A stretch of DNA of 63,130 nt, filler included, from Klebsormidium nitens (lineage: Eukaryota; Plantae; Klebsormidiophyceae): NCBI GenBank assembly GCA_000708835.1. It is 7 parts of 7 records of this genome, joined end to end, with 100 filler letters (N's around TTAATTAATTAA, not from the genome) between each part and the next. Parts side by side here need not be neighbours in the genome. Positions count along the whole stretch, not along the records: positions 1 to 29,080 come from DF237828.1; 6 more parts are not named here. One strand, written 5' to 3'. Below the pieces are notes generated by a model. The model searched no databases, was not told the DNA's origin, and saw nothing but the letters and a program-made list of their open reading frames with translations. This document shows, piece after piece, positions 3,837 to 28,425 of the stretch. Numbering within the stretch: position 1 is the first letter of the stretch; each line of letters begins with the position of its first letter. The position numbers and the translations under genes were made by a program.

Positions 3837-4507
3837 NNNNNNNNNNNNNNNNNNNNNNNNNNNNNNNNNNNNNNNNNNNNNNNNNNNNNNNNNNNNNNNN
3901 NNNNNNNNNNNNNNNNNNNNNNNNNNNNNNNNNNNNNNNNNNNNNNNNNNNNNNNNNNNNNNNNNNNNNNNNNNNNNNNNNNNNNNNNNNNNNNNNNNNN
4001 NNNNNNNNNNNNNNNNNNNNNNNNNNNNNNNNNNNNNNNNNNNNNNNNNNNNNNNNNNNNNNNNNNNNNNNNNNNNNNNNNNNNNNNNNNNNNNNNNNNN
4101 NNNNNNNNNNNNNNNNNNNNNNNNNNNNNNNNNNNNNNNNNNNNNNNNNNNNNNNNNNNNNNNNNNNNNNNNNNNNNNNNNNNNNNNNNNNNNNNNNNNN
4201 NNNNNNNNNNNNNNNNNNNNNNNNNNNNNNNNNNNNNNNNNNNNNNNNNNNNNNNNNNNNNNNNNNNNNNNNNNNNNNNNNNNNNNNNNNNNNNNNNNNN
4301 NNNNNNNNNNNNNNNNNNNNNNNNNNNNNNNNNNNNNNNNNNNNNNNNNNNNNNNNNNNNNNNNNNNNNNNNNNNNNNNNNNNNNNNNNNNNNNNNNNNN
4401 NNNNNNNNNNNNNNNNNNNNNNNNNNNNNNNNNNNNNNNNNNNNNNNNNNNNNNNNNNNNNNNNNNNNNNNNNNNNNNNNNNNNNNNNNNNNNNNNNNNN
4501 NNNNNNN

Positions 4508-9200: not shown

Positions 9201-11230
9201 TGGTCGAACGCCCGGGGCTCCACCCTAGACTTTTCGATGCTTACGCAAAACGCCTTCGAGCTTCGCAGGTGCTCCTGGCCGATGGAATAGTTGGAGTAGC
9301 AAACTCGGACGGTGGCAAACGGCCGGGAGGCTTAGGGAGTACCTCTCTGGACTGCAGGCGGACGTTCGTCCACCCGAGCCAGCAATCGGGCGGCGAGGCC
9401 CTGGAGAAGCAGTCCATCTCGGGCCGCGATTACTGCGCCGCAGGTCTGGAAGGTGGTGGCATGAAGCGGCGACTCCTGCTGCAGCCGGAGCTCCGCGACC
9501 TGCTTGCACGTCTCTCGCAGCACAGGCCGACGTCAGAGAGACTTGGGCAACGGCTCAGCGAGGCGGAGTACCTCGATCTCAAGGCAGCGCTCGCTCGGGA
9601 GGACGTGAAGGAGGTGGTGCGCTTCACCCAAGTGGAGGGCGAACCGGGCAGNNNNNNNNNNNNNNNNNNNNNNNNNNNNNNNNNNNNNNNNNNNNNNNNN
9701 NNNNNNNNNNNNNNNNNNNNNNNNNNNNNNNNNNNNNNNNNNNNNNNNNNNNNNNNNNNNNNNNNNNNNNNNNNNNNNNNNNNNNNNNNNNNNNNNNNNN
9801 NNNNNNNNNNNNNNNNNNNNNNNNNNNNNNNNNNNNNNNNNNNNNNNNNTTGCGGAGTCATCGGGACATCGGGCGGTCTCTCGGTCGTTTGCAGGCTGCT
9901 GCTGGGGTACGCGGCCACGGTGGAGGACCGGCGGCTGCTCGGAGCTGGCTCGCCAATCCTGCGGCGGTTGCTGGACGCCTACGGCGGCGGCTGCTTCCCG
10001 GCCTTTTTCGCGCCGGCCCTCCACCATCTGTACATTCTGACCGCGCTCGCCCGCGGCTGCACTGGCTTTGGAGACGAGTATCGGGACGGTTGGGTTATAG
10101 CCGCGCTCAGGCCTCTGAACCACGCCGTCGAGCTGTTGCGGATCCAAGCGGAGAGGGGCGCGCTGAACGGGCAGGAGACGCGACTTTTGGCGAATGCTCG
10201 CGGTCTCGCGGAACAGCTGCTGCCCGGTGTGGAGGCGTTGCAGCCGAGCCCGGATCAATGGGCGGCAATGAGCGGGGTCGAGCGGAGCCTCATATGGGAG
10301 CGGCTCGGCGTGGACGAGGAGGGGCAGCAGATGCACCCATTGCCCTCTGGGCATAGCTTTCGAGCGGAGCAGGATTCGCTGGGCCACTACTCCCTCCCGG
10401 GATGGGAACAGAAGCGAGGGCTACCGCACTACGTCACGTTCGAGCACGCTGACGGGAAGAGTCGGACGGGGGAGGAATTCAAGTGCAATTCGGGGCAGAC
10501 GGAGACCGAATGGGACGCCGCGAACGTGCCCGCGGCTGACGCGGGGAGGCGGCAAGGGGAAGAAGGCAAAGCGGCCGCACAAGAGCAGAGGCGCGATGGT
10601 GGTCTGCTGCCCCCATCGCGTCATATACGGCTTCCACGTGATGCTGAGGGGCGAAAGCCCGCGGGACGTATTCGCCGTGCTCTTCACGCGGCTCAACCGG
10701 GAGCACCTCCCCAAATTCGTCGTCTACGACAATGCCTGCGCCCTTCGCAACTACTGCATGCGCCGGGAGCCCGCCTTCTTCAGTGACGTCACCTTCGTCG
10801 TCGACAGGTGAGAGATCGTTATTCTCAATCGCAATCTTGCAAGCGCCTGTTAAAACGTGTACAGATGCATTCACTGTGCAACACATCTTGCAAGGTACGG
10901 AGCAAGTAGCTGAAGAATTGCGATTTTTTGTGCAGGTTCCATTACGCCAAGGCGGGGGCGGAAGTGCATAAATGTGGGCCCTCCAACGCGACCGACTTCT
11001 ACGATGAGCTCCGCTGGGTCAACACCTCAGCGGTCGAGAGCGTCAACAGCTTCTTGAAGAGGTTTAGGACGCTGGGCTGGTACTCGGGATTAGAAAGCTT
11101 CATGATCTTCCTGCCCATTCTTCTCAGTGGGTATAACGTAGATCTCAGGCGTGTAGACGACGCCAAGCTGACGGTAGCTTTGCCAGCCAGGCTTTGGAGT
11201 GCCGCAGTCAGGAGGCTGCTGTTGCAATGA
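6225..11230 (+). mobile_element. Spliced KDZ (Kyakuja-Dileera-Zisupton) superfamily DNA transposase gene with SWIM zinc fingers and a CxC domain
   Basis: SWIM-like motifs (NCTCDRGRLSLEASCVHK; WYCQGKLSGCPAQECTHI), Cys cluster (CPIQAPPCGG...YCCQC...H..CGEHLGL), CSICGVHPE|VLLADG joined across intron 8682-9268, then MVVCCPH..YGFHVMLRGESPRD, YDNACALRNYCMRREPAFF, VDR|FH across intron 10808-10935, NTSAVESVNSFLK. One apparent frameshift near 10500-10560. The 5' end is hidden in the gap. No termini identified. Confidence 0.85.
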
Positions 11231-11247
11231 TAGCAAGTGGAACGATA

Positions 11248-11610
11248 GCCTCGATCCAAAAACCAAAAAACCCAAAACTTTTGATAGTATGCAAATGAGT
11301 AGATGCATCTATATTTTTTTAAAAACATTTCAAATGGATGATAATTTTTGGGTTTTTTGGGTTTTGGTCAGACCCCCACCTCCGGGCCTCTTGCCACTCT
11401 CGCGTCTCGATTGTTGCATTGATGGCAGGTGGAAGGAGAGAGGAGAGGCCTCGATCCAAAAACCAAAAAACCCAAAGATTTCGATAGTATGCAAATGAGT
11501 AGATGATATGTATACTTTTTAAAAACATTTCAAATGGATGATATTTTTTGGATTTTTTGGGTTTTGGTCAGAGCTCCTCCAACCTTGCCTCTTGCCACTC
11601 TCTCGTCTCT
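11248..11610. terminator. Tandem 200-bp duplication, each unit an ~110-nt hairpin abutting the primase-helicase stop codon
   Basis: Arms ccaaaaaccaaaaaacccaaa (11256, 11456) pair with tttgggttttttgggttttgg-like arms ending at 11367 and 11567. The minus-strand TGA follows directly (11368-70 and 11568-70). The terminator function is inferred. Confidence 0.55.
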
Positions 11611-14600
11611 CTCTCGGCCGTTGCCTTTCTTTCATCTAGCTCTGCGCTCGTAAGCAATCTGACGCCGATATAAGGTCTTCCTGACCCGGAACCGTTCTGC
11701 TTGGGTACCTTGGGATGCTTCTCATCCGTAGTAATATTATGACCCTTTAGGGCCTTCGTAATTGCGTGCGTGGTCATTCTAGGGTCGTCACACGATGACA
11801 TTTTATAGGCAGAACAGAAATCCCCCTGTACGATTACCTCGTTTGCTTTGACAAGGCAGTACTGTTCGAGGAAGGTGGATAGCGTATCATTCTCCTTCAG
11901 GTACTCGTTGCAAGCCTTTGTAAAGACTTGGGGTCTGGGCCAGAGCGCCTTTCGAATGTCACCTTTGGCTGTTCGTATCTTGTACCAGTCCCGTGCGCCC
12001 TCGAATGCGACTCGGATGACGTCCTCGATGCCTTCTTTCGATTCGAGATACATCTTCAGACCGACGTCTGCCCTTCGGTGGTGTGGAATGTTTGGGTTAT
12101 ACTCAGAGTCCTCCACGTATTGATTCAAGTACGGCTCTAGAACGATCCTCCGGAGAAGGCCCGCATTCACCTCTTCCACGGGGATACGAGGCTTATTGTT
12201 CGTCAGCAGAACCAGCTTGTGGGTCGGGATGAAATTCTTCATCTTCTCGAATAACTCTCGAGCCGATATCTTCCCCCCTCCCGTCTGCTCCTTGATCGTG
12301 GCTGCGTTGATGGTCTGGCCATCGTCCAATTCGTCCGCAAGGCCGAAGCGAACGCCTTTCAATTGAGCCAGATGGCTGCTTGCAGCACTCGCAGTGTCGT
12401 CTTTCGTCTTCATGAATATGTGCTTCGAGCAGATGATTGCATACTCGCCCCAAGCTGCGAGTATGGCCTGCTTCAAAGCTCCCTTCCCGTTCCCCCCCTC
12501 GCCCCACCAGAAATTGACGATCTCCTCGTCCGTATATCCGGACATACCGTACCCCAAATAAAGAATCTTCCAGCGCACGACATCCTCGTCGTTATTCGCG
12601 ATATCCAGCAGGAATTCCTTAAACTTGGATCGTGTTCCGGTAGGTTTGGCATGGTATTCGCCTCCTGCGACGAGGCTGCAGAGGTGCGACGGGTGCGGCT
12701 TCATGAGTTCGCCCGTGGGGATGTATCCGACACCGTTTTGAAAATTCACGAGCAATGGATTCTCGTTCATGTGCGACGACAGATCGGAGACGTAGAGGTC
12801 CGTTACGACGTAGTGAAGGCACTTCTTGACAATTGTCGGATCCTGCACGTTGAATCTAATCTCCGGGAGTATATTCCCTGCGAGCTGCTTGCATTCGTCC
12901 CTGAGGAGCTTGTTTTTTGGATCTTGCACGTGTTTTTGCAATGTCGCTTGATCGAGATCCTTGAGACCTGGATTCGATTCGCACAGCTTGTCAGCAAAGA
13001 GCTTCTTGAAAAGTACCACAAATTCCATCCCGTACCAGCTCAAGAGGGCACCCATCTGAGCCGCAAAGACGCTCAAGACCTTATTACATGTGTCCTCCAC
13101 CCAACCGCGGCCATCCCAGTAGAAAAAGGTCTTCCTATCTCCCGTATTCAATATGCGGCCTTCGATCTTGTAGATGTGGCTGAAGATCTTGGCCAGACCT
13201 GCAAAAGGCTCTCCATTTCCGTCCCTGGCGACTTCGGCAACAAAGGCGAGAAATTGGCTCTTACCTTGTTCCCGGTACTTCCTAAAGAGGTTCATCTGAT
13301 CCTGGGGGGAGACCGCTTCGTTGGTAGCGTCTTGGAGCCCAGCCTCTAGGGTCAGCTCGCCCAGCTTTCTTACCGGCTCGTGGGAACAAAGATCACCATG
13401 GCAGCGGTAGAATACGTCGCGCCCGCGCTTCAGGAGGTTGAAATTATTACTGCCGGAGTGTTCGCGTCCGAAGAAGCACGTCCTGGGCCCGGTTGTGCGG
13501 AAGCAGTAAAATGTACCATATAGACCGTGGGGGAGCGAGCTGCCGTACGTGCTCGACGAATCGTTCGCCTTCTCCTTTAACAGCTTCTGGAGCTCTCGCA
13601 CGAGCGAGCCATCTTGCAAAAATGGCACAGGCTTCGCACCCGCCGCAACCAACTCGACCGGCCTGGTTGGCTGGACCGGCTCATCTTCTGATGCTAGATT
13701 CTGGTCAACTTCGCCACAGCCGTCGACAGCGGGGCCCGGTGGGGCACTGTCCGGGACGGCGATCGAAGGGGCGGCACCAGTTGAGCGGCCTCGGTTGATA
13801 GTATCGACGAGCCACGCAGGCATAGCATGTGGAATTCCGTCGCCCTCAGGTGCCCAAGAGTAGCCGCAAGATTTACCGTGCTTACCCAGATACCGAGCAG
13901 GAGGTGCGTAAAGGAGACCTNNNNNNNNNNNNNNNNNNNNNNNNNNNNNNNNNNNNNNNNNNNNNNNNNNNNNNNNNNNNNNNNNNNNNNNNNNNNNNNN
14001 NNNNNNNNNNNNNNNNNNNNNNNNNNNNNNNNNNNNNNNNNNNNNNNNNNNNNNNNNNNNNNNNNNNNNNNNNNNNNNNNNNNNNNNNNNNNNNNNNNNN
14101 NNNNNNNNNNNNNNNNNNNNNNNNNNNNNNNNNNNNNNNNNNNNNNNNNNNNNNNNNNNNNNNNNNNNNNNNNNNNNNNNNNNNNNNNNNNNNNNNNNNN
14201 NNNNNNNNNNNNNNNNNNNNNNNNNNNNNNNNNNNNNNNNNNNNNNNNNNNNNNNNNNNNNNNNNNNNNNNNNNNNNNNNNNNNNNNNNNNNNNNNNNNN
14301 NNNNNNNNNNNNNNNNNNNNNNNNNNNNNNNNNNNNNNNNNNNNNNNNNNNNNNNNNNNNNNNNNNNNNNNNNNNNNNNNNNNNNNNNNNNNNNNNNNNN
14401 NNNNNNNNNNNNNNNNNNNNNNNNNNNNNNNNNNNNNNNNNNNNNNNNNNNNNNNNNNNNNNNNNNNNNNNNNNNNNNNNNNNNNNNNNNNNNNNNNNNN
14501 NNNNNNNNNNNNNNNNNNNNNNNNNNNNNNNNNNNNNNNNNNNNNNNNNNNNNNNNNNNNNNNNNNNNNNNNNNNNNNNNNNNNNNNNNNNNNNNNNNNN

Positions 14601-14905
14601 NNNNNNNNNNNNNNNNNNNNNNNNNNNNNNNNNNNNNNNNNNNNNNNNNNNNNNNNNNNNNNNNNNNNNNNNNNNNNNNNNNNNNNNNNNNNNNNNNNNN
14701 NNNNNNNNNNNNNNNNNNNNNNNNNNNNNNNNNNNNNNNNNNNNNNNNNNNNNNNNNNNNNNNNGGGGTCTGCGGCCGTTGGCCTGACGTCAGATCGAGC
14801 GCCCGGGGTCAAACCCTCAGGGTATTGTTGAGGAGCCTGGAGGCCTGACGCTGACAAGCTGGCGAATGTCACAGAGGAGCTGCAGGTGTTCATGGCGCTG
14901 AGCAT
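11568..14905 (-). CDS. Virus-type Prim-Pol + Zn-binding + D5_N + SF3 (D5-like) primase-helicase, copy A, intronless over sequenced part
   Basis: Open frame from the gap edge (13920) to 11568: Prim-Pol tail GLLYAPPARY..GYSW, C..G.EH.SNNF..Y.C....C, NFQNG (D5_N), Walker A WGEGGNGKG, Walker B FGLADELDDG, motif C LLTNNKP, RRIVLEPY. The N-terminus runs into the 13921-14764 gap; the start at 14905 is tentative. Confidence 0.9.
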
Positions 14906-15006
14906 GTTATACTCTAAGGTTCTGTGAGAAAAAAACGAGCGTCAGAAAAACGCGTGTACGCGGACGATAATCCGTAAATAATTTCTCAATTGAGACTACG
15001 ACTGAA

Positions 15007-15339
15007 ATGTCAGACACGATCAGCAACCTACCCACAAAGGGCACTTACGCAGAGGAGATATTTACCTGTGAGTGTCGGCACTGCTTGACGGCTCGGAAAT
15101 ACAAACTGCGGAATCCGGATGCTCAAAACCGTTCTATGGCCGAATACTATCAGCGAAACAAAGATACCCTCCTCCTTGATCAAGCATGGCTGCGATACAA
15201 ACGAGGCGTCAATCTCCATTTGAAGACGCTCAACAAGCTCAAACAAGCTGGCTTCCCCGTAGAAATGACCGCTGGTGCGCCAGCCTCTCCGCCTACAAAG
15301 AACGATCTAATGCACTTCGTCGCAGTCGAGGCCGCTTAG
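15007..15339 (+). CDS. Small virus-like hypothetical protein (CxCxxC, YYQRNKD motif)
   Basis: 110-aa ATG ORF whose end overlaps the end of the convergent recombinase ORF by 4 nt. The basic ..AEYYQRNKD.. segment resembles small virophage/NCLDV proteins. Confidence 0.6.
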   Translation: MSDTISNLPTKGTYAEEIFTCECRHCLTARKYKLRNPDAQNRSMAEYYQRNKDTLLLDQAWLRYKRGVNLHLKTLNKLKQAGFPVEMTAGAPASPPTKNDLMHFVAVEAA

Positions 15340-16099
15340 CTTTTTGGCTTTCTTTCGTACTCTCGCATTTGCGTGCCGATTGAATGGAGCATCCTAGACG
15401 CCACGTATTGCCTGTCCGCCAGGGAGGCGTCGTTCTGGTACCGGTCGGTGAGAAAAATGTGCCTCAAGTGGTTGATCGTTAGGTGCCGACCGTCAGAAAA
15501 TGGGATCTCGCGTATGAATTGCGTCAGGTACTCGTCGTTCATAGGCTCACCCAAGTTGCTGAGCAACGTCAGGAAATACGCTCGAGGTACGAGTTCTATC
15601 GAGCGCTTTATGTAACACGAGAGCCGCTTCGGCATCTCGAATCGTTGCTCCCCGTACTTCTTCGCCGTCTTGAACGACTTTAGAACGAGTACATAGGTCT
15701 CGGTGTCTCCAGACTCCTTCAACACGTTTCCGNNNNNNNNNNNNNNNNNNNNTAGTGCTTTTGGATCAAATCGATGATCCGATCCACATCATTTTTGATC
15801 CAATCTAGGGTGTCCGGCAGGGTATCGGCCGAACACAAGAGGCGATGGACCGCGTTCAAAGACTTGACATACTGAGCGCACGTACTTTCGGCTCTGCCCT
15901 CTCCCTCCAGCAATTTTGCATGGCACATGGCCGAGCCACAGTGAACGACTCTCACGTCATCATCCACAGCTGGTCCCTGCGTGGATATCATGAATATATG
16001 TATATATGAGATAGTATTTTCAGAATACTTCGAGTTCAAAACGACGTCCCCCTGACCATCATAACCCGAGCTCATGCTTTTCCAAGGGAGGCGGTTCAT
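15336..16099 (-). CDS. Tyrosine recombinase/integrase of virophage / Polinton-like-virus type (gap-interrupted)
   Basis: C-terminal catalytic set: GN...YVLVLKSFKTAKKYG (Lys), TINHLRHIF (HxxR), MLHSIGTQMREY (His...Tyr). N-terminal part EGRAESTCAQYVKSLNAVHRLL. The first catalytic Arg would lie in the N gap at 15733-15753. The start codon is uncertain. Confidence 0.8.
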
Positions 16100-16318
16100 G
16101 TTTTTAGGAGCGGCAGGGACACAAATATCGACTGATTCGGAGAAAAGTGCATTAGGTCGGATTTTAGAGACGCGGTATTTTCTGAAAATACCGATCCAGG
16201 GATTCTGGCAGATAAGGGGGCATGTTCGGCTTTAATAGTGCATTCGGCCTGACGATTGGTCGGGTACTGGGCATGATTTTAAGAGGTTCGAGACATTTAT
16301 CTGGAGTGCCTCCGGGCG

Positions 16319-16864
16319 ATGAATTTATATACCGAGGCCTACTGCATTTTTTCATTGCATTCGATTATGGAAGAGGACCAGCCTCTCGAAGAAGGTAAAC
16401 ACCGGCGTTCGTTTCGGGTTCTCAAAGCTCTTGACATGCAGTCCAGTGATCAAACCACGAGACTGAGTGAAACGCGGTTGGAGATCGATGCCCAAAAAGG
16501 GAGGGTGGTTCAGGCGGGTTCAAGAGCTGGATCTTCTCTATTTCGACTGCTCAAGACGGATTCTCGTAAGTCCGCAACCCTTCCCTACGCATGCAGCGTT
16601 CTGCTACAGGAAACGACGAGAAGCAGCAAGCACAAGCAGTTCGCATATTCCGTCTCTCTTCGTGCGTTACCTGAAAATCGGAGGCCAGAGGGAATGAAAT
16701 TCCAGGGAAGCTACCGAACGACGGCAACGAAACTGACACTCGAAGAATTTGATGCATTGTTATCAACAAGCCAAGCCGCGAGGTTGACAGCCAATGTCAA
16801 GGATACAAAGATGAGGCGTATTGCACTTACGAAGAAGAGTCGAATGCCAAGTCCTACTGCTTAA
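16319..16864 (+). CDS. Hypothetical protein (likely ATG 16367)
   Basis: 181-aa open frame tightly packed between the recombinase and the next ORF. No recognisable motif. Confidence 0.4.
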   Translation: MNLYTEAYCIFSLHSIMEEDQPLEEGKHRRSFRVLKALDMQSSDQTTRLSETRLEIDAQKGRVVQAGSRAGSSLFRLLKTDSRKSATLPYACSVLLQETTRSSKHKQFAYSVSLRALPENRRPEGMKFQGSYRTTATKLTLEEFDALLSTSQAARLTANVKDTKMRRIALTKKSRMPSPTA

Positions 16865-16926
16865 GTTCAGGTGACCCGTATTCGTACTCAGCGAGCGACT
16901 TTTCTTAAGCTTTTTTTAAGGTGCTG

Positions 16927-17403
16927 CTAGCCTCTGGCGCTGGCGGCAAGCCGGTGGTACGTTTTGCACTTTGCTGGATTGGCAAGCATGTCGAGCATCA
17001 AGTCATCCGAGATGAGGTACCGCAACTCAGCGACTTTTTTATCCATCGAATCTTCTTGCTTTTTACGCACATCATTGCAAGCTTCTATGCGTTTGCTGCT
17101 ATGCTCTGATCGTTTCAAAACACTCCCCCATTCGACTAAGAGGTCGTAGGGATCCTTACACCGATGCACAACGATTCCGGCTTTTTGCAAACCGCGGCAA
17201 ACTGCATTGACAAGATCCGACATCGAGTATAGGGGCAGAAGTCCCTTAATTCCTGCAACATCGCCTAATTTTAAAATCATATTGTGTGTGTGTTCCATTT
17301 CAAACGTGCGTTTGATCCTGTTGACAGATTTATCGAGGCAGTCTTGATAGAATTGCCGAATTTGATTCCTTGTTTTATTATGGGCTGTCAACATTTCTTG
17401 CAT
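16927..17403 (-). CDS. Giant-virus-like conserved hypothetical protein (DUF5759-like pattern)
   Basis: YQDCLDKSVNRIK...GLLPLYSMSDLVNAVCRGLQKAGIVV...LLVEW matches my recollection of the Y..iL....rIk...G.PlY......i...L...Gf.V....l.isW pattern of NCLDV proteins. Needs an HMM check. Confidence 0.6.
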   Translation of the reverse strand: MQEMLTAHNKTRNQIRQFYQDCLDKSVNRIKRTFEMEHTHNMILKLGDVAGIKGLLPLYSMSDLVNAVCRGLQKAGIVVHRCKDPYDLLVEWGSVLKRSEHSSKRIEACNDVRKKQEDSMDKKVAELRYLISDDLMLDMLANPAKCKTYHRLAASARG

Positions 17404-17459
17404 GTTACTCGTCTTAGATAGATGTATGAAAATTACAACTCGCTAAAGCGTGACCACCT

Positions 17460-17965
17460 CCAGCGTGTTCAGGGTGTTCAGAGATCTGCACAAACTATTT
17501 TGAGAGGGCGAGGAAGAGGGGTGGGTGAGAAGCGTGTTCATGGTTTCAGACATCTGCGCAAACTATTTCCACGTGGCGAGAAGTTAAGGCGCGCTCTTGC
17601 ACAGTAGAGTGTTTCCGCTGCTAGAGCCATTTCTGTGGTTTTCCAATTCAATGCTTAGAACTGGATGTGCGACCAACTGTATGTTTGAGAGAGCGATGCC
17701 GACTGTTTGCATCTGTTTTGATTACAGCATTTATTTTTTGTTGAAACCCTTGCTAAATTTTCTACAGTCTTGCATCTTGTGCGCCTTACGGCGCAAAACT
17801 GAGCAAGTCAAGTATGATGAGTCAGCTTTAAACGTCCAAAAGAAATCTGCACGAACATTGTCGCCGGTGCAGCGCGGTGGCGCCGCGTCATCTGAAAAGG
17901 GTTTGGTCAAAACCTTGAACATATTGAACATCTAGACTAGCCCCAAGTTAGCCTAGCCTAGTTGC
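17460..17965. repeat. TGTTCA-motif copies plus a ~350-bp block homologous to 28060-28425
   Basis: Forward motifs at 17464 and 17535. From 17610, ttccgct..agagccatttctg, tgcttagaac.gatgtgc.acc and tttggtcaa.accttgaaca..tgaacat.ctaga..agccc...gttagcctagcct are shared with 28060-28425. Confidence 0.85.
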
Positions 17966-18272
17966 CGGGTGGTTCCCACCGTTTTCGACGGCGCTAGTTA
18001 CAAAGTTCCGTGATGCGGCCGGGGGGACACGTGGCGGCTGATTCTGTGGTAAACTCCACTTCGTTTGCTCCAGCAGCCCGTTTGCTTGGTTTGCTGGCAG
18101 CATTTGACGTTGTTTACAAAATACCATTGGCCAATCATATTAAAGCAGTCATAAATCCAATACGAGTCATTGGTTTGGCTAACTCGGCAAAACTCGACAG
18201 CAGTGCTTACAGCCGACCCATCAATTGAGAAGGCATCCATCACATCTCTCTTTCGTCTCTACAGGTGGTTTT

Positions 18273-20216
18273 ATGGCGCCTATCATCCGTCAGTTGCTGC
18301 TCTTTCCCTTGTGCATATCAATGCTTCTCGCTTTTGAGAGCTTCAGGCCGGTGACAGCCCAGTTTTCACTTGATTCGGAGACCCTCCGAACCAGGTACAA
18401 GAAGGAATGGGACCTAGTATCTTCTCTTGGTGATGAAGCTGCCTTTGCTTCATATGATGGAACGCAGACAAACGAAGCAAGGGTGTTGACCCATATTACA
18501 GGAACTTGGGATTCAGGCGGGCTCAATGACTGGCTATGGGCACGGGTTTCGAACTTGAGTGCGAACTCCAAGCATGTCGTAACTTCCACTTTTCAGGGGN
18601 NNNNNNNNNNNNNNNNNNNNNNNNNNNNNNNNNNNNNNNNNNNNNNNNNNNNNNNNNNNNNNNNNNNNNNNNNNNNNNNNNNNNNNNNNNNNNNNNNNNN
18701 NNNNNNNNNNNNNNNNNNNNNNNNNNNNNNNNNNNNNNNNNNNNNNNNNNNNNNNNNNNNNNNNNNNNNNNNNNNNNNNNNNNNNNNNNNNNNNNNNNNN
18801 NNNNNNNNNNNNNNNNNNNNNNNNNNNNNNNNNNNNNNNNNNNNNNNNNNNNNNNNNNNNNNNNNNNNNNNNNNNNNNNNNNNNNNNNNNNNNNNNNNNN
18901 NNNNNNNNNNNNNNNNNNNNNNNNNNNNNNNNNNNNNNNNNNNNNNNNNNNNNNNNNNNNNNNNNNNNNNNNNNNNNNNNNNNNNNNNNNNNNNNNNNNN
19001 NNNNNNNNNNNNNNNNNNNNNNNNNNNNNNNNNNNNNNNNNNNNNNNNNNNNNNNNNNNNNNNNNNNNNNNNNNNNNNNNNNNNNNNNNNNNNNNNNNNN
19101 NNNNNNNNNNNNCAGCACATTCTGATTAACACTCGTGGACAGTCTTTTCTCTGCTCACCGGGGATAGCCATTGGGAGTTATACGCACTTTCCTTATAGTG
19201 AGGTTGTTATTAATGGCACCAAGAAGATTGCTTTTAACGAGGCCTTTGACCTTGAGAATCTACCTCCAAGCAATGTATCAGACTGTTTGACCGCCGCACC
19301 AGTTGGGGTAAATGTTGCTTCAGCTGTTGCGCAGCGGCAAAATTTGATTGAGACGGCAGAGTCTACTGTCAATGGACTTATGACATTCTTTGGAGAAAAC
19401 TTTTGGAAGAATCTCCTCACGCTCAATAGTCGCGTTGGGGAATGCCAGGTGTTTGGATATGGTGACAATCCGGAAGCTTGGAGTACTCCTATATCCCTAG
19501 GGTTCAAAACCCCAGGATCGCAGCTGTGTGAAAACCCAATTGGTGAACTCCTAAACCTTTATGTAAATGGTACTCCGGGGACTTTATCGGGATTACAGGT
19601 TTTTGCTGCAAGCGAATTCAATGACTTATTCCACGTGATCCACGAGAGGCGTCTTAGGGGATGGGTTGAACAACAAAGTGCAAGGGTACAACAAAGGGTT
19701 CAATTGACTTACCCCACTGCTTCCTCCACTGAGATCTCTTTGGCTATAGTGACTGTTCTCACCGCCCTCTTTGCTGGAGACTGGGTGCAGACGTCCATTC
19801 ATAAGTTTGCAAACGATTTAAGTCATAAGTGGAATATTCAGGGTATCCGGAGGATGTTCCTAATATGGACATTTGTTGGAGTAGCAGAGCTAGGCGAAGT
19901 GGGTATCGAAGTTTGGCCCCTTGTAGGCTTGGCCTATCGTGAGTACAAGGCCAGCAGGGTCGTGGATGTCTCCTGCGACATTGGAGCTGAGACGTCTGCC
20001 GAATCTCGGGTATACAATCAGTTTGTGGGAACATTGTCTGTTATCTGTTCCTTGGTCTCATATACCCGTACAAGATTCATTGCTATACTAATTGCAACTG
20101 TGTTCTTGGTTAGCGCTAGCTTGGCTTTGGCTGCTTGGAGGATCTTGCACATCAAGAAAACATTGAGTACGATTGGTTCGCAGAGCAAACCGGAGTTGGG
20201 CTTTGAAAGCTTATAA
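18273..20216 (+). CDS. Orphan membrane protein: signal peptide, large extracellular part, ~3 C-terminal TM helices
   Basis: The same frame is open on both sides of the 18600-19112 gap. Hydrophobic N-terminus MAPIIRQLLLFPLCISMLLAF; hydrophobic segments EISLAIVTVLTALFAG, MFLIWTFVGVAELG and FIAILIATVFLVSASLALAAW. A possible 5'-UTR acceptor precedes the ATG. Confidence 0.7.
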   Translation: MAPIIRQLLLFPLCISMLLAFESFRPVTAQFSLDSETLRTRYKKEWDLVSSLGDEAAFASYDGTQTNEARVLTHITGTWDSGGLNDWLWARVSNLSANSKHVVTSTFQGXXXXXXXXXXXXXXXXXXXXXXXXXXXXXXXXXXXXXXXXXXXXXXXXXXXXXXXXXXXXXXXXXXXXXXXXXXXXXXXXXXXXXXXXXXXXXXXXXXXXXXXXXXXXXXXXXXXXXXXXXXXXXXXXXXXXXXXXXXXXXXXXXXXXXXXXXXXXXXXXXXXXXXXXXXXQHILINTRGQSFLCSPGIAIGSYTHFPYSEVVINGTKKIAFNEAFDLENLPPSNVSDCLTAAPVGVNVASAVAQRQNLIETAESTVNGLMTFFGENFWKNLLTLNSRVGECQVFGYGDNPEAWSTPISLGFKTPGSQLCENPIGELLNLYVNGTPGTLSGLQVFAASEFNDLFHVIHERRLRGWVEQQSARVQQRVQLTYPTASSTEISLAIVTVLTALFAGDWVQTSIHKFANDLSHKWNIQGIRRMFLIWTFVGVAELGEVGIEVWPLVGLAYREYKASRVVDVSCDIGAETSAESRVYNQFVGTLSVICSLVSYTRTRFIAILIATVFLVSASLALAAWRILHIKKTLSTIGSQSKPELGFESL

Positions 20217-20874
20217 GAGAGGGACACATGGCAATCCAGCATTATCCATCCTGCAATGGAAGATGCAACAGTATGTGCTATTTACAATGGTCTCATACAT
20301 ATAGTTAAACACTTATTCGAGATTTCAGAGATTGTGGACAGCATATTGGGCTAGTGGGAAAGGACGGAGATCGGATGATTACAACCCTTTTCAGAGTAAA
20401 TTGGTACAACCTCATTTTGCTACGTCGTTTTCGTTACTGTTCGCCTTCAATTCCATTCTCTTGAGTCTCAATGAGCATGTCAAAAACTCATTGCTGATGA
20501 CACAATAGCTTTCAATGCAAAGCCATCTATACTTGCAGGGGTACGTACATTTTGTGACTATCTCTTCAAGCACTTCTCTGGTGACTCGAGCATAATCTTA
20601 AAAAAGCTGACAGAGGGAGGCCAAGCTCCTGCACTAGTTGGACGTCATATTTGGGTACTGCTGCCGCTATGCAAAGGATGAAGAGTGGGAAAAGTTGAGG
20701 CGGGTGTTAAGGTAAATAAGTACAGGCGAGACGTTGATTCCTCAAGGAGGCTTGTGATATCATAGCAAGACGCTACCTGGAGCACTCACATAGCTCCTGG
20801 AGCGGTTGCAGCTAGAGTACCAGCACGCTTCAAAGAGTTGGCACATGAGCATAACACGGTGACGGTTGTGAATT

Positions 20875-21500
20875 TCCCCAGCGTTCAAACATCTCGCAGA
20901 CTATTCGCAAAGGCCGGAGCCGGTGTAGAGGTGGAGGTGTTTAGACATCTGCGCAAACTATTTCGAGAGGCTAAACAAAAGGGAGGCCGGTTTATACAAC
21001 GGAAGGCGTGTTCAGGGCATTTGGGCTTCTGCCAAGACTATTTCCAAGTGGCGAAGAATATTAAGAGGCGACTTTTGCACGGAGGCATGCTCGTTTAGGC
21101 TTGTGCGCAAACTATTTCCACGTGGCAAAAGTCAAGAGTGGGGCTCCGGTCTTGGACAATGGAAATCGTGTTCAGGATGTTCAGGTTTGTGCGCAAAGTA
21201 TTTCCACGTGGTGATAAGTTAAGGGCCGCTCTTGCACAGCAACATGCGTGTTCAGGAAGTTCAAGCTTTTGGAAAAATTAATTTAGGAGCCAAGGAGAGG
21301 GGCCGGTCTTGCACCGTAGCATGCATGTTCATGATGTTCAAGCTTTTGGACAAACTAATCTTGGAGCCAAGAAGAGGGCCGGCCTTGCACGTGGTCAAGC
21401 CCGTTCACAAATCCGTACAAAACTGGCAAACAAGTGGGGCGGTTTTGCATGAAGGCATGTTCAGGATGTTCAGACATTTGAACAAACATTTTTCAGATGC
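20875..21500 (+). repeat. Direct array of ~70-80 bp units each carrying one forward TGTTCA-motif
   Basis: Examples: 21169 cgtgttcaggatgttcaggtttgtgcgcaaagtatttcc; 21246; 21325 catgttcatgatgttcaagcttttggacaaacta; 21458. Units are separated by ...tcttgcac. Confidence 0.9.
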
Positions 21501-21633
21501 CATGGCACGTTGCAAATTCATGTTAATAGTGGATGACTTGCAAAAACGTAGATGGGATATTTACGGCCAATCATCTGTACATTTATATACAAATCTGCAT
21601 CCTCGTACCACTGCCTAAAGATCAACTAACGGT

Positions 21634-24578
21634 CTAACTACGTGCATAGACGCTCTTGACCCCCGGATAATACAGCTCCCTCTTTCCGAAAACGTTGACG
21701 GCCTTCCCGCTTCGCTTGAACCCCTTCCCCTCCATGCGCTTCTTCAACGCCTCGGGTTTGATTTCCTCATGCGAGAATTTGTTGTAGTCGTCGACGAAGT
21801 CATGCTCGAGAGTCTCCAGGCCGGTTCCCCGCAGGCAGTGCTCATCCAGAAACCGCTGCAGCATGTCGCAGTCTTCGAAATAGGCCCGCGTCGCCTCGAC
21901 GACTTCTGGCGGAGTCTCGCCGAGTCCCTCTCTGTAGTATTCGACAGACTCGCGCGCGAGGAGGGAGAGCAACTGCTCCAGGACGTCGGGAGCTAGCATG
22001 CGCTCCTTCAGGCCGGTGTTTGCAAGCCGGTGGTCCGGATTGGAAGGGTCGAATTTGTCAGCCGTCACGTAGGTGTTTGGAAATCGGAAAACTTCGATAC
22101 GCCGGCGGAAGTTGTCGGCCTTCGGATTGGTCCCCGGGGGCAGCAGGGGGGGGTTGTTGGTCTGGATGAAGGGCGTGTGGGTTAGCGTGAACTCCACGTT
22201 CTTTGTGTAGAGTTCGCGGGCCACGATGTCGCCCCCGCCGCACGTGGATAGAACCAGGGCCGCATCCACACACTGCGATTTGTCCGTCTCGTCCGATATG
22301 ACCATCCGCTTGCCCTTCAAGGCGAAGAGGTAGTGGGTCGGCGAGCCCTTCGAGGCAGGCCGCTGTCCAGGGGTTTTGACGACCGCGTCCGTGGACATGG
22401 TGCCGTAGTATGGGCCAAATGCCGCCTTGATCGCCTCCTTCCACACTCCCTTACCATTCCCTGCAACGCATTACGAATCTTTGACTACCTTCTTTTTCTA
22501 TTGAATTAAATCTGATTTTGTAAAAAAGAAGGACATTAAACATCCATATTTCTATTGGAACTAAAGGGCCACTGACAGGACGCCACAACGGTCCTTCTCC
22601 TCGGCTCTTGAAAATAGTTTACACAAAAGTGTGAACATCTTGAACATCCTACAAATGGCTCACCTCCGAGCCCGATGAGAAAGAAGAGCTTCTCCTCCCG
22701 AGTCATGCCGTTTGCTGCATACGCAAAGGCGCGTACAAAACGCCGGATGAGCCCCTCTTTGGCGTTAAAGATGTCCCGCAGGAACTCCAGGGGAACAGGC
22801 GAGGCGTGGTCCAGCCCCTGCAATCGGTGGAAATGCTCAGACAGTGCTACACCTTTTCGTCTCCGTTTTCCAATAATCGCGACCATTTGCAAACGACGGA
22901 GGGGGCAAGAGGCGAGATCGGAACGAGTTGCGAGATGCTCACCAGGTAGCGCAGATCGATCATACGAGTGCACATGTACTGCGGCCGGTGGGTGTCCAGG
23001 TCGCCCGTCTTTAGCTGCCAGATTCCGTTGCGGCAGTTGATGATGTGGACGTCCTTATCCAGCAGAGCAAACAGGTCGGGTGCGTACATCTCGCCCTGCA
23101 TGACCTCCATCGTGCTCTTGATCGCGGACGAGTTGTTATAATTCTTGATGCCTTTGATGATCTCTTCCAGTCTCTGAGCCTTCTTCTTGTCCTTCTCGTT
23201 TTTCAACTCCTTGCGCAACCGCTCACGTACTCGATCGTACACGCTGCTGAGCTGGTGCATCATGACGAACCGGACGTACGCGCCGGTGGGATCCTCTTCG
23301 TAGTGCTTCCCATTCCAAAAGTGCCACTTGTTGTAAAAGAACACTCTGCGTAGTAGAAAAGAGAGATTGTATATGCCTCCGCCGATGTACCAGAAAGTTT
23401 GGCCAAAAGACTGAACGTAATAAAAACGCTTCGATACTTTTTCTACAGCCGCTTGCATGTTGGTATCAGTTTGCAGCCCACATTCGACACCCACCAGCGT
23501 CTCAGATAGTGTGCGCAGAAGCTTGAACTACATAAATATGTCGGACCCGCGCAAGTACCTGCCGCAGGATGAGTACATCTGGCTGGCGATATGGCTCCCG
23601 CCCATGTCCCCCTGGAACGCCCAGTGGTCCACGAAGCGCTTGTCCAGCGTCCGATACATGCTCTCGTCGTCGGCGGAAACGGGGGCGACCTCTCCGCCGA
23701 GCATGGCCTCGTATCGAGTGAGCATCCCGATCTGCTTCAACGGGCGGACTTCGCAGCACTCGCTGCTGTTGCAGGAGTAGAGCAACGCTCGGCCGCGGAC
23801 GAGGACGGAGAAGTTGTTCGAGCTGTGCTGCTGCCCGTAAGGGCATTTGCGCTGTCCGTGAGCTCTGTATACATACATGTCGCCGGCTGGGTACTTCTTG
23901 AGCTTGTCGAAGGTGGAGGTGGTATCTCCCGCTTTCGCGAGACACACCCGAATCCTCTCCAGAACCGCCGGTTCGGCGTCGCCGCCCCTCTCGGTCGGGT
24001 CCGGTTCGGACGTGGGAGCCCAGAAAGGCTCGTGCTTGACGGAGTCCCTGAAATACACAACAGCATTGAACGGTCGGCGGCAGCTTGAACTTTCATGAAC
24101 GGCTGCATACCTCATGCGTCTCCATGTTCAGATGTTCAGGAAATGGCACAAGATGTTCTCAACCACTCCAGAAGTGGTGCAACGGTTGCAGCTACCGGAA
24201 AAAACTTGGAGAAGCAGATGGCATCCTAGAACAAGCCTCACCTGGCGGCTGCCCCCTCGCCGTTGATGACCGCGATCAACCAGTCCGGCATCGCCCTCAG
24301 GTTGGATCGGTCCTCCAGGATCTCTTGGATCCACTCATACCGCCGCTCCTCGCCGTCTAGGGCTCTGTAGCTACTCGGATCACAGAATATGAGCCCTCCG
24401 TCTCCCCGAGTGTCGATCCCGACCTTCTCATTTCGCCACGTGAGACCTTGCCGGCCGCCGCCGCTGATTAGACCCGCTTGCATCGAGGCCGACAGGGAGA
24501 AAAACAGGTGGACGCCTCCGTTTTCCGTTCGCTCATGCGGGGTATCGTCGGGCAAGACGTCATACAGTTCCACCATCT
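21634..24578 (-). CDS. Spliced virus-type Prim-Pol/D5-like SF3 primase-helicase, copy B (exons 24578-24242, 24047-23559, 23345-22943, 22817-22664, 22460-21634; further 5' exon(s) likely)
   Basis: Four GT-AG introns (24241-24048, 23558-23346, 22942-22818, 22663-22461) give one continuous frame of ~736 codons. Motifs: Prim-Pol TENGGVHLFF and GIDTRGDGGLIFCDPS, D5_N INCRNG, Walker A GLGG|NGKG split by the last intron, Walker B VISDETD, FIQTNNPP, RRIEVFRF. An acceptor ctttctcag precedes 24578. Confidence 0.9.
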
Positions 24579-25254
24579 CTGAGAAAGCGATGTGTAACGA
24601 TTACGACTAGTTAAGCCTAACCTCGTTCTCGACAGGATTTCGTTGACCGCGAGTTAGCGAAACGGCGGTGGTTACGTCTTAACGACGCACTGCGTGGCTG
24701 TCTGCAAGATGGCGTAATATCCCGGATGGATCGGCTTCAATGAGCCGATGTCACCGTTCAGGATAAGTTGTGTTCGGCTTTGCCGTTCGATGCAGCCAAG
24801 CTCATCTGTGCGTTCTGCACAGCTTGCGTGGCTGGTCTTGTCAAAGGTAGTGGACAAGAGAGAGCTATACGATTAGCCGCATAATCCACGTTGTATGTAG
24901 AGCTGTATGCTATTGATGCATATCTAGTCAAATCATGTATCGTGACGTGCTGATCTGTCTCGACTTGTGGTGATCCTCATCGCGACAGCGCAACGTGCTC
25001 AACATATGTGGATTCAATTGTCTTATCTCTTGACATGGCTTTCTGATCGTGGATGAGACGTGATCAACCCATATCGAGGGCAGAGACGTTGAGACGTCTT
25101 CTCGACATGGCTCTTGTGATTTCATCAAGCGTAAAGAAGCAAGCGCCTTGCGAGGTGCGAGTCTCGAGACTCCTCGACTGAATATGGAGCCTCNNNNNNN
25201 NNNNNNNNNNNNNTTGACGAATAGGTCCAACGTACACACAGGGAATCCGAGTTT

Positions 25255-27900
25255 GTGAAAGTGGCGAGCTGCAGCGACGCATTTGTCTACGGCTGGCTCC
25301 GTTGCCTCTGCTGTCGCCTCCTGCAAAAGCCGGAGACCGAGATTACTTTGCGCAAATTCCTGAACCCTCTGAACATAATGAGGAAGGCTACCAGACTGGG
25401 CATGCATCCGGCTGTTTATGATGTTCAAGCTTTTGCTTAAACTATTCTGAGATCCGAGGTCAGTCGACGTACCTCTGCTGTCGCCTCCTGCAAAAGCCGG
25501 AGACCGAGATTACTTTGCGCAAATTCCTGAACCCTCTGAACATAATGAGGAAGGCTACCAGACTGGGCATGCATCCGGCTGTTTATGATGTTCAAGCTTT
25601 TGCTTAAACTATTCTGAGATCCGAGTTCAGTCGACGTACCTCTGGATCGTCGCGAGTGGCTTCAACATCTGCCGCCGGCCGTGGGTCACTTGCTTCGATC
25701 TCCATGCCAGCCTGAGCTGCTGCCCCTGCCGCCACCTGGAAATGCTGGAGACCGATAAAAGTTTGGGCGAATCCATAAACATCTTGAACATACGTACGGC
25801 GAAGGCCAAGGCTACCAGACTTGGCACGCATCCAGATGTTTTTGATGTTCATGCTTTTGCCCAAATTATTATGAGATCCAAGGTCAGTAGGTAGGCTGCC
25901 TCTGCTGCCGCCACCTGGAAAAGCCGGGGACTGAGATTACTTTGCGCGAATTCCTGAACTCTCTGAAAAAGGACAAGGAAGGCTACTCGGCAACGCATCC
26001 GGATGTTTGTGATGTTCATGCTTTTGCCCAAACTATCTGAGATCCGAGGTCAGCCGACCTACCTCCGACCCGTCGGGAGTGGCTACCTCAGTTGCCTCCG
26101 GCCGTGGCTCTTGATCGATCTCCATACCAGCCTGTGCTGCTTCCCCTGCAGCCGCCACCTGGAAAAGCCGGAGTCCGGGTTTACTTTGTGCGAATTCCTG
26201 AATACTCTAAACGGGACGAGGAAGGCGACTTCGAACGCATCTGGATGTTTACGATGTTTATGCTTTTGCCCGAAGTATTATGGGATCCTAGATTAGTAGA
26301 CGTACCTGCGACCTGTCGCGAGTGGCTTCCTCAGTTGGCTCCGGCCGTGGGTTTGCTTCGATCTCCATACCAGCCTGTACTGCCGCCTCTGCTGCCGCCT
26401 CCTAAAAGATGCCGGAGGCCGAGAAAGGCTTGCGCAAATCCATAAACACTAAGATGCTATTAGACTCGGCAACGCATCGGAATGTTTATGATGTTTATGC
26501 TTTTGCCCAAAACTATCACGGGATCCAAGCTCAGTCGACATACCTCTGGATCGTCGCAAGTGGCTTCCTCGGCTGGCTCCATCCGTGGTTATTGTTTGAC
26601 ACCTTCGCACCATTTGGCAACAGTGGATGCGGTCTTCCACAGCGACAAGCGTGTTCAAGATGTTTGGACTTTTGGACAAACTATTTTCATGTGAGCGAAG
26701 GAGAAGGGGCAGGCTTTTGATGGGTTTTGTCAACGTGGTACCCCCTCTGGATATTTGATGTCCTTCTTTTTTACATGATCATCTTTTTTATTAATAGAAA
26801 AAGAAAGACATTAAACATCCATAGTGCTATTGGAACTGGAGGCCATTGACAGAACTCTGGTCCTCTCCTTGGCTCTTTGAAATAGTTTGTCCAAAAGCTT
26901 AGACACCTTGAACAAGGAATCGAGAGGTTTTTCTCTCGCCTAAAGTCTTTATGGGTTCCAGAGTGAAAGACCTACCCCCGAGTTGCAAATGGCTTCCACA
27001 GTCGCCGGCTCTTGCGGCATGGTGCCCACTGCCGCTGCCTCCTGGATCAGCCAGAGACCGAGATTAGTTTGCGCAAATTCATAAACATCCTAAACATAAA
27101 GCCTCGGCGGCTGTCGCTGATGTTCATGCTTGTGCGCAAACTGTTTATGGGATATTGAATCATATACCAACCTCTGGATCGTCGCAGGTGGCTTCATCAG
27201 ATGGCTCCCGCCGTGGCTCTTGTTGGATCTCTATACCGGCATGTACTGCTGCCGCCACCTGAAAGAGCCAGAGACTGAGAGAATTTTGCGCAATTCCATA
27301 AACACCCTGAACAAGACAAGGCATGCTACCAGGCTGGGCACGCATCTCGATGTTTATGCCGTTTATGCTTTTGCCCAAAACTATCACGGGATCCAAGCTC
27401 AGTCGACATACCTCTGGATCGTCGCAAGTGGCTTCCTCGGCTGGCTCCGGCCGTGGCTCTTGATCGATCTCCATACCAGCATGTACTGCCGCCTCTGCTG
27501 TTGCCTCCTGGAAAAGTCGGGGACCGAGATTAATTTGCGCGAATTCGTGAACACCCTGAACAGGACAAGGGGCACGCATCCGGATGTTTAAGATGTTTAC
27601 GGTTTTGCCCAAAACTTTTCTGGGATCCAGAGTCATAGACCTACCTTTGGTTCGGTTGAAGTGGCTTCCACATGTGGCGACCGCATCGGCTCTTCTTCGT
27701 GTTCTGCCGGCGGTTGCTCAAAGTTGTCCAGCCTCGTGTCCAGCTCCAAACCACTCTCTCTTGCTGCCACTGTCGCTGCCACCTGGGAAGATCTCAAGAA
27801 TAGTTTGCGTCAGTTCCTGAACATCCGAACACCGATTGGAAGATTTTTAGACAGTGCATGCATCTTGGTGGTTCAAGCTTTTGCCGAAACTCTAAAACAG
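25255..27900. repeat. 2.6-kb array of degenerate ~170-250 bp units with head-to-head TGTTCA-motifs
   Basis: Each unit reads tttgcgcaaattc.tgaac...tgaaca, then a ~30-nt spacer, then tgtttatgatgttca.gcttttgcccaaacta. Near-exact 167-bp tandem copy at 25305-25640. A long palindrome at 26652-26912. Confidence 0.92.
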
Positions 27901-28059
27901 TGGTAGTTAACTCACCACTTTGCAGGCGGGTTTTTGTCGCTTGCTTTTCTTAGGCAACCTCGTCTTCGTGCGCTTTGTGCTTTCGTTACCGAGCACGACA
28001 GCCTCTAAGCTAGTGGTCATGCTACTTACGTATGCCGGAGAAGTAGGCGAGTACAGTGA

Positions 28060-28425
28060 TTCCGCTTCAAGAGCCATTTCTGGACTGTGTTTTTCCATCT
28101 CAAAAGGCGGAGTTTCAGTGCTTAGAACCGATGTGCAACCGTGCTGTGGAGGGAGCAATGCTGACTAGCTTGCATGTGTTTTTGCTTCCGCCACTGTTTC
28201 GAAGCGCTTGCGAAGCTTTTACAGTCGTGTATCTTGTGCCGACCTTTGAACCTTTGAACCTTGCAGCAGCTTTCAGCAAGACTTTGAACACGAATTGAAA
28301 CCTTTGCACGAACGTTTGCGCACGGAGGCCATCGACGGCTGTCGCTGGCGCGATCGGAAATACTTTGGTCAAGACCTTGAACAGTCTGAACATGCTAGAT
28401 CAGCCCTAGGTTAGCCTAGCCTGAT
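28060..28425. other. Second copy of the conserved block ending gttagcctagcct (element end or bidirectional promoter)
   Basis: Colinear homology with 17610-17965 in the same orientation. In both cases the block lies upstream of a minus-strand primase-helicase. Confidence 0.75.

Follow-up and report, generated by a model that had tools for sequence, protein, structure and literature searches.

The analysed window comprises 63,130 nucleotides from Klebsormidium nitens (GCA_000708835.1), in which only positions 1–29080 represent a single continuous scaffold, the remainder consisting of other scaffolds joined by N-linkers. As judged from sequence, the elements in this region fall into two separate families rather than one, with A on one side and B, copy C and mini-B on the other (Table 1). 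The genes of A follow in the order of a Kyakuja-Dileera-Zisupton (KDZ) transposase, a tail-to-tail Prim-Pol/D5 helicase, a tyrosine recombinase of the type found in Polinton-like viruses (PLVs) and a DUF5759-like ORF. The unit is thus bigger than proposed in an initial annotation, which had placed its left boundary at 11248/11568, since the primase is joined to the KDZ gene on its left, here and in two other copies. While the parts listed in that annotation are genuine, neither their assignment to a single family nor the left end of A has held. In total, the A unit extends over about 12 kb. An Rfam scan of positions 1–29080 returned 0 matches.

Table 1. Features of the A and B element families and their coordinates in the window
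Feature	Position	Strand	Basis or remark
Copy C, of B type with both ends truncated, exon/intron repeats	2557..5345	-	alignment, motif matches
KDZ DDE transposase gene	7062..11230	+	Pfam, Atlas, triad read from sequence
Tandem duplication of KDZ-stop/primase-stop junction	11220..11609		~190 bp, 84% direct repeat
A-type Prim-Pol + zinc-binding + D5_N + SF3 primase-helicase	11568..14905	-	no intron in sequenced part
110-aa ORF without family	15007..15339	+
PLV-type tyrosine recombinase (OLV11-like by resemblance)	15336..16099	-	family alignment, model of homologue
181-aa ORF without family	16319..16864	+
158-aa DUF5759-like protein (Nucleocytoviricota family)	16927..17403	-	lead, below cut-offs
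Mini-B: B 3' motif array joined to B promoter and first codons, ending TAGCCTAGCCT	17450..17959
B 3' flank, six same-orientation tandem motif copies	20880..21500	+	candidate origin or end-binding array
B primase-helicase	21634..24577	-	five exons in frame, four GT-AG introns
Host repeat of very high copy number, inserted in B 5' of the Prim-Pol exon	24593..25193		summed contig depth about 1e5 vs about 50; no Rfam match
B 5' region	25214..28098	-	ATG at 28098, repeated acidic Ala-rich phase-0 exons
B end block with exon 1 start, promoter region and a single inward motif, ending in TAGCCTAGCCT	28052..28422

The KDZ transposase is the most novel part of A and had previously been missed. Its identity is reflected in an Atlas similarity of 0.94–0.95 to KDZ clusters and in a D-D-E triad found by reading the sequence (D in LADG, D in YDNAC and E in SAVES); a Pfam KDZ match on one exon is below cut-off (E 5.6e-5). 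The N-terminus contains a region labelled SWIM-like by eye and is Cys-rich, introns are predicted at 8682–9268 and 10809–10935, the 5' start is uncertain and the frame changes near 10.5 kb. In the duplicated junction with the primase, each copy contains an intergenic spacer that forms a predicted hairpin (DNA fold of −24.8 kcal/mol, calculated without shuffle control). The KDZ-primase junction is directly observed in three copies, with the two further ones located on contigs of the same strain (run X2) that are 81–84% identical in both genes. Two of the 13 joints listed (11139–12019 and 11223–13345) lead from the KDZ 3' exon into the primase, with a spacing at the former of 676 bases compared to 689 in the present copy after subtraction of the 190-bp duplication. 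The equal divergence of both genes in the linked copies implies that they were co-inherited. In one linked paralogue, which has kept its KDZ neighbour, the similarity to A is confined to the N-terminal half of the primase, suggesting that the helicase part has diverged or been swapped; P0008/P0011 are mixed primases of that sort. Close paralogues of KDZ outnumber those of the primase (up to 5 contigs at 11044), and some KDZ copies may thus be unlinked. In runs X9, which carries another organism label, and X7, a sediment metagenome, the KDZ 3' exon (83–90%) and the primase, recombinase or small ORFs (about 88–98%) are represented by diverged, individual pieces, with little or nothing of the region 18.1–20.9 kb. 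A scan for loci related to the KDZ exon found a single phage locus, which was judged spurious.

The minus-strand primase-helicase described initially in A is supported by a Pfam D5_N match (E 3e-9) and by TIGR01613 above its cut-off. Its Prim-Pol domain, which is present in close homologues, falls inside an N gap (13921–14764) that a contig from the same sample spans with about 470 bases. A zinc-binding Cys/His region is common to the primases of A and B, and the winged helix of the primase-helicase is a by-eye assignment. The A primase is 99% identical to KFL_008790040, four more K. nitens primase paralogues reside on other scaffolds, and in gene model KFL_003670050 recombinase and primase are fused in the same order as in A. 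A link between these two genes is also indicated by 4 of 13 JGI primase matches with E<1e-50, whose contigs have the same lengths as those of listed recombinase records (75568, 12284, 18624, 11890). A scan of metagenomes with the A2 alignment found no related locus.

The tyrosine recombinase is likewise corroborated by its family alignment, in which the residues R, K, R, H and Y are invariant, by matches to Pfam Phage_integrase in 19 of 115 family members and by the model of the homologue P0028 (pLDDT 92.5), which matches Cre and was obtained with a deeper alignment than a first recombinase model with a pLDDT of 51. The middle of the gene is masked by a 20-N gap (15733–15752), where it continues in loose contig ends. 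A comparison of the recombinase profile to the PDB by sequence gave nothing significant, and a scan of metagenomes two relatives at 23–24% (L001, L002), of which L002, at 23% identity, adjoins large ORFs resembling, by eye, major and minor capsid genes. The label OLV11-like refers to resemblance and to this context rather than to an alignment with OLV11. For the DUF5759-like ORF, which in another copy is linked to the 181-aa ORF by a joint (16676–17102), we found Pfam E-values of 0.003–0.005 and Atlas similarities of 0.84–0.86 with 188–195 shared features. For the region 14770–17990, no RNA run was among those listed, which does not bear on its expression. Two accessory genes of PLVs, a tyrosine recombinase and a primase-SF3 helicase, are thus both present in A, and the initial description of a multi-copy family in an algal host with proteins of PLV/virophage type is borne out.

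Also in line with this description, Pfam detected no capsid, packaging ATPase or PolB among 82 ORFs of at least 70 residues in the region 5300–21700, a search with Pfam profiles, none of them PLV-specific, in a scaffolded sequence whose remaining gaps do not individually reach 0.9 kb. The boundaries that A, B and C had been expected to share did not emerge, as neither common termini and att sites at the candidate ends nor circles and empty sites at contig joints were found. The candidate ends contain no terminal inverted repeat (the longest exact inverted match between them being 11 bp), no recognised target-site duplication, including the 7–8 bp type of KDZ elements (where the left end probably lies, the sequence has a 561-N gap), and no att-like direct repeat. 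The sequence TAGCCT at 11246 was rejected as att site, since its location is the spacer between KDZ and primase, whose duplicated copy has a different sequence there. None of the 13 joints marks a circle or an empty site, and neither these nor an insertion polymorphism were seen in the contigs of 8 runs (15 of 60 joints listed), with contigs dropping rare forms. We infer the mobility of these elements from copy structure only. Their eukaryotic host with spliceosomal introns and the absence of an att repeat at candidate ends set them apart from phage satellites of the P4/PICI type.

In B, the Prim-Pol, D5_N and SF3 pieces of the described primase were all found. Its exons are interrupted by introns at 24241–24048, 23558–23346, 22942–22818 and 22663–22461, and joining across the last of these restores the Walker A motif. 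What had been described as arrays turned out to be exon-intron units in repeated succession, with a 35-bp motif in their introns: the repeat exons are separated by related introns of 130–153 bp, most with a back-to-back motif pair, and the 5' region is partly rearranged at 26.0 and 26.5–27.0 kb. The nine related introns lie mostly between duplicated exons, and the four primase introns are unlike each other end to end. This arrangement, with 0 motif matches in 34 kb of other scaffolds, is not that of introner elements, where near-identical introns occupy many unrelated host sites. Predicted introns are absent from one contig of a run guessed to be RNA. The repeat exons were joined onto Prim-Pol by eye only, and the last of them (35 aa) was rejected as Prim-Pol start upon matching neither the primase profile nor Pfam. 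A general intron hairpin was equally discarded, with z below −2 in only 2 of 13 introns. Copy C, as noted initially, repeats B, with 83% identity over 1287 bp in an alignment with indels and with frameshifted primase exons. The view of B and C as intronised derivatives of A is upheld concerning their richness in introns but not concerning their descent, since the helicases of A and B share 30% identity and B emerges as long-branched sister outside a 14-sequence A clade in a tree of 25 sampled helicases (support 98/96 for the A+B pair and 94/92 for A alone, subject to long-branch effects). A search for full-length relatives of B retrieved only matches of 26–28%, and a scan of IMG/VR with its helicase found no relatives.

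The 35-bp motif, which is based on TGTTCA, is real but not shared by the genes of A, with none found in its primase, recombinase and small ORFs. A profile trained on 23 of the sites has 39 matches, all within 3.0–5.1, 17.4–17.9 and 20.9–28.4 kb, and 0 in either 29.1–63.1 kb or 20 shuffles. On the A side, matches are restricted to 17466 and 17930. The motif pattern has 0 exact matches in IMG/VR, and a likeness to P4 iterons, which found no support among the literature matches listed, does not enter the argument. The similarity of the end block near A to that of B is equally genuine (255 of 393 alignment columns are identical, and the score is 204 compared to a shuffle mean of −71 and a maximum of −40 in 200 shuffles), ceasing after TAGCCTAGCCT, with the following 100 bp at chance level; a third copy is seen in a joint from 28400 to 17939. 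However, this block consists of the B promoter and first codons and, together with its motif, would be part of a deleted B-type copy and not demonstrably of A. Mini-B, in which positions 17530–17604 are 83% identical to 21164–21239, is likely a derivative of B that arose by internal deletion. A scenario in which A interrupted a single B copy, leaving C and mini-B as its two parts, is disfavoured, as mini-B has its own 3' array.

Taken together, these features can be accommodated by two capsid-less elements, a composite transposon A and a separate intron-rich primase element comprising B, C and mini-B that would rely on an integrase in trans, a reading to which we assign an even chance. A likely consists of a KDZ transposase fixed to a virus-type primase-helicase, a recombinase and small viral ORFs, moving as a unit, and the elements of B type are likely mobilised by the trans-supplied integrase. 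In such a scheme, the KDZ DDE enzyme would excise and insert the A unit, whereas the Prim-Pol/SF3 protein would prime and unwind the excised DNA, leading to its copying outside of S-phase control. The Cre-like recombinase may circularise A or resolve replication dimers, and this role might be a leftover from an ancestral PLV in which the capsid module was lost. The 35-bp motif would serve as putative binding site (origin iteron) for B's own primase-helicase, residing in flanks and introns where coding is undisturbed, and mini-B would retain just the two cis ends.

Somewhat unlikely is the alternative that A is a decayed fragment of a PLV or giant virus beside which an ordinary KDZ transposon has inserted, with the pair copied passively by segmental duplication. 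Phycodnaviridae-like core genes, described for K. flaccidum/nitens in the sections of the report considered here (PMC5294986), and the DUF5759-like ORF would fit such an origin, as would the different GC (61% in KDZ with introns, 54% in the A primase) and intron content of both genes, the failure to find termini at candidate ends and the fact that linked copies number only three. However, it does not readily account for a primase frame that is open over 2.35 kb, for the paralogue that has kept KDZ next to a diverged or replaced helicase part, or for the expansion of the family in several metagenome records, where one recombinase cluster has 20 members. We regard it as improbable that A is a PLV-derived, helper-dependent satellite, integrated by its recombinase and packaged by a giant virus, with KDZ as cargo or passenger. 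The intact motifs and Cre fold of the recombinase, the proposal of OLV11-like recombinases as PLV integrases in the cited part of PMC4642659 and the many recombinase records without primase on a contig of equal size speak in its favour, but it is opposed by the lack of att-like direct repeats at candidate ends and of close primase or recombinase relatives in scans of IMG/VR, one 25-residue match to P0008 aside. Least probable is a single family, with A as gene-rich form and B/C as intronised derivatives ending in a common block, as the sister position of B, the Cys/His region in both primases and a block abutting the last ORF of A are countered by the low helicase identity, the homology of this block to the B promoter and first codons joined to the B 3' array, and a stretch devoid of motifs between 5.2 and 17.4 kb.

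The proposed composite of transposase and viral module in A has partial counterparts in other systems. The herpesvirus part of Teratorn reportedly contains capsid genes. Teratorn resembles A in that it unites a DNA transposon with a viral genome, but it is piggyBac-like and spans 180 kb, compared to about 12 kb and no capsid found in A (PMC10175614; this and the following reports are each represented by part of their content). PLVs with OLV11-like recombinase and primase-S3H share with A the recombinase family, the primase-SF3 fusion, small intronless ORFs and an algal host, but in A no major or minor capsid, packaging ATPase or terminal inverted repeats were found and KDZ is attached (PMC4642659, PMC10120064). 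Kyakuja, Dileera and Zisupton also combine a KDZ-type DDE transposase with cargo genes, and Kyakuja equally lacks terminal inverted repeats; however, their described cargo is TET/JBP, whereas that of A is a replication and recombination module, and no 7–8 bp duplication was found (PMC12730594). In the Plavaka giant repeats of Amoebidium, a protist with giant-virus insertions, a transposase flanks intron-poor genes including tyrosine recombinases, but these form tandem clusters of up to 50 kb and no primase-helicase is named in the sections cited (PMC11244446); Plavaka is unrelated to KDZ (PMC12730594). The replicons of pRN1 ORF904 and P4 alpha show the same single primase-SF3 design with C-terminal winged helix and TIGR01613 match, but are prokaryotic, whereas B has spliceosomal introns (PMC2777425). 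The pRN1 protein comprises Prim-Pol, D5_N, SF3 and winged-helix domains, and an essential non-coding region is located 3' of its gene, in the same place as the tandem motif array of B (PMC2777425). Among the literature matches listed, 'primase' is absent from one set and 'Zisupton' from another, with Repbase, paywalled papers and supplements outside their range.

Extended further, our reading of A and B would define a class of eukaryotic transposons, which we put forward as tentative and rather doubtful. In this class, a PLV module for replication and recombination would have been captured by a cut-and-paste KDZ transposase, with loss of the capsid, and the element would spread through excised circles that amplify themselves. 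A sister replicon with only a primase would have moved its origin-binding sites to spliceosomal introns and would spawn non-autonomous minis of 500 bp. Capsid genes in Mavericks of Trichomonas have led Bellas et al. to suggest, in the part of their work cited, an endogenous viral nature for all Maverick-Polintons (PMC10120064), which raises the question whether PLV-derived elements can adopt a purely transposon life. If our interpretation is correct, this question would become directly testable in a culturable streptophyte alga, through a capsid-less, multi-copy replicon of PLV type tied to a DDE transposase, and the cargo range of KDZ transposons would be extended from TET/JBP to replication genes.

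The element that we term unit A combines a KDZ (Kyakuja-Dileera-Zisupton) DDE transposase gene with a primase-helicase, a tyrosine recombinase of the type found in Polinton-like viruses (PLVs) and small ORFs. Transposase and primase are linked in three copies, this one included, as the 3' exon of the KDZ gene is joined to the primase in two other contigs (run X2, same sample; 2 of 13 joints), one connecting 11139 to 12019 with 676 bases between them (identity 83% and 81%), the other 11223 to 13345 with 2400 bases between them (84% and 84%). Position 11248 is thus not the boundary proposed in the initial annotation, whose gene content of A had omitted the transposase. The stop codons of both genes face each other about 140 bp apart at a junction that is a tandem duplication, and the KDZ gene, as assembled, contains a single frame change near 10.5 kb. 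Since close paralogues are more numerous for KDZ than for the primase, some KDZ copies may be unlinked to a primase. The left end of A probably lies between 5345 and 7060, the site of a 561-N gap, and its right end is at 17403 or further right. Farther upstream, 6225-7047 holds Cys-containing ORF pieces that may represent either a separate gene or 5' exons of the transposase gene.

Positions of annotated genes and candidate mobile elements
Feature	Position	Strand	Remarks
KDZ transposase gene	7062-11230	plus	left of primase; D-D-E residues; two predicted introns
Primase-helicase of A	11568 to ~14905	minus	D5_N and SF3 domains
Tyrosine recombinase of A	15336-16099	minus	family of ~350 aa
LINE-like endonuclease/RT	42321-45231		other scaffold; by eye
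PIF1-like helicase (Helitron-type)	57374-59362		other scaffold; by eye
Copia-like retrotransposon	59946-62401		other scaffold; by eye

The A primase profile matches ASFV C962R and poxvirus D5, and its Prim-Pol, found in the homologues scanned, sits inside a gap of ~470 real bases. A profile search with the recombinase family retrieved 2241 proteins at E 0.001, and 19 of 115 family members match Phage_integrase. A 16-sequence alignment conserves the catalytic R, K, R, H and Y without exception; of these, A's own protein shows K, R, H and Y, the first R falling within a 20-N gap. The model of one homologue (P0028, pLDDT 92.5) matches Cre at a TM of ~0.55-0.6. The recombinase accompanies the primase: the two are fused, with the gene order of A, in one K. 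nitens gene model, and of 13 strong JGI primase matches 4 pair with a recombinase record by equal-sized contig, among the recombinase records listed. In P0008 and P0011, an N-terminal half close to the A primase precedes a helicase from another clade, which suggests module exchange within the family.

Capsids and ATPase are the defining genes of PLVs (PMC4642659). In line with the initial annotation, a Pfam scan of the ORFs in and around A found neither a capsid nor a packaging ATPase, and we therefore do not file A as a PLV, despite the PLV-like character of its module. A 158-aa ORF resembles DUF5759 (Nucleocytoviricota) at lead level, and a distant recombinase relative lies on a contig with large ORFs resembling, by eye, PLV capsid genes. 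Whereas KDZ elements are known to carry TET/JBP cargo (PMC12730594), that of A is linked with a primase-helicase, a pairing described in none of the papers that the literature searches listed (Repbase and paywalled work being outside their scope). The nearest arrangement described is found in Amoebidium, whose recombinase-rich repeats are flanked by Plavaka (PMC11244446).

Unit A would move as one unit through KDZ cut-and-paste and amplify through its own primase-helicase, while the recombinase would circularise the element or resolve dimers. Against this model, and that for B below, the candidate ends revealed no TIR, target duplication or att repeat, and the contig joints examined no circle or empty site. 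A less likely alternative is a viral relic with an inserted KDZ that was passively duplicated.

The initial annotation, its observations partly confirmed and its interpretation partly supported, had regarded the intron-rich primase element B (20880-28422) and its relative C (2557-5345) as derivatives of A. This is at odds with the 30% identity of the B and A helicases and with a tree of 25 helicase domains (outgroups limited to search matches; P0006 and P0015-P0021, which miss most of the domain, omitted), where B on a long branch is sister of, yet outside, 14 A-type rows. C does repeat the B-type layout, as a truncated, frameshifted copy with the same introns where both overlap. Four GT-AG introns bring five B primase exons into frame and restore Walker A. 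The repeats initially described as motif arrays are, in B, short acidic phase-0 exons alternating with related introns of 130-153 bp (nine mapped), downstream of an ATG at 28098. A 630-base X10 contig of guessed RNA status, which aligns in five pieces, stops where exon 1 has its donor (27916) and omits exactly the 130-bp intron 27171-27042, which supports splicing in a B-related copy. The repeat exons may splice onto Prim-Pol; a profile test of this connection gave no support. Exon 1 encodes YSPTSPAY (28030-28053, minus), which is similar to the heptad in the CTD of RNA polymerase II but without significant Pfam support (E 1.6). A very-high-copy repeat without Rfam match is inserted at 24593-25193 (summed contig depth ~1e5; present also in a run guessed to be RNA).

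A 35-bp motif has 39 matches, all within C, B and mini-B (17450-17959), where B-type first codons lead directly into sequence 83% identical to the 3' array of B, the structure expected if a B-type element had lost its interior. At the two ends of B the motif faces inward, in most array introns it stands back-to-back, and two B primase introns also hold it above threshold. The end block common to B and mini-B, correctly noted initially, is identical at 255 of 393 positions, with similarity stopping at TAGCCTAGCCT; in B it spans promoter and first codons, and a contig joint (28400-17939) reveals a third copy of this end. Beside A it is seen in this copy alone, other A copies being known from protein records and contigs compared with the window, and mini-B may either belong to A or have inserted independently. 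A 222-base X6 contig from another organism's run (depth 3.7) shows zero differences from the block at 17670-17891 and may be carry-over. B would replicate from its motif arrays, putative binding sites of its own protein, by analogy to pRN1 ORF904 (PMC2777425), and would depend on an integrase supplied in trans.

Bases 1-29080 form a single scaffold and the remainder unrelated pieces, given the N-linker at 29081 (with five further along) and the 99% identity of the A primase to K. nitens KFL_008790040, which lies on a contig of 29,080 bp. A single-copy 647-codon ORF between mini-B and B (18273-20216, with gap), matching no Pfam family, combines a signal-peptide-like start and hydrophobic C-terminus with the region's lowest CpG ratio (0.63). 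Directly left of C lies a bacterial-looking, intronless glyoxalase/bleomycin-resistance-like ORF (1923-2309; Pfam E 0.003), and another scaffold holds two AT-rich, intronless minus-strand ORFs of 184 and 191 aa (48457-49651), possibly viral and of no Pfam family. Over 10500-29000, C>T (313 places) and G>A (337 places) dominate the differences in run X5, a pattern shared with base-converted libraries; if X5 is such a library, its identity of 90-95% would mean that this region is heavily methylated.
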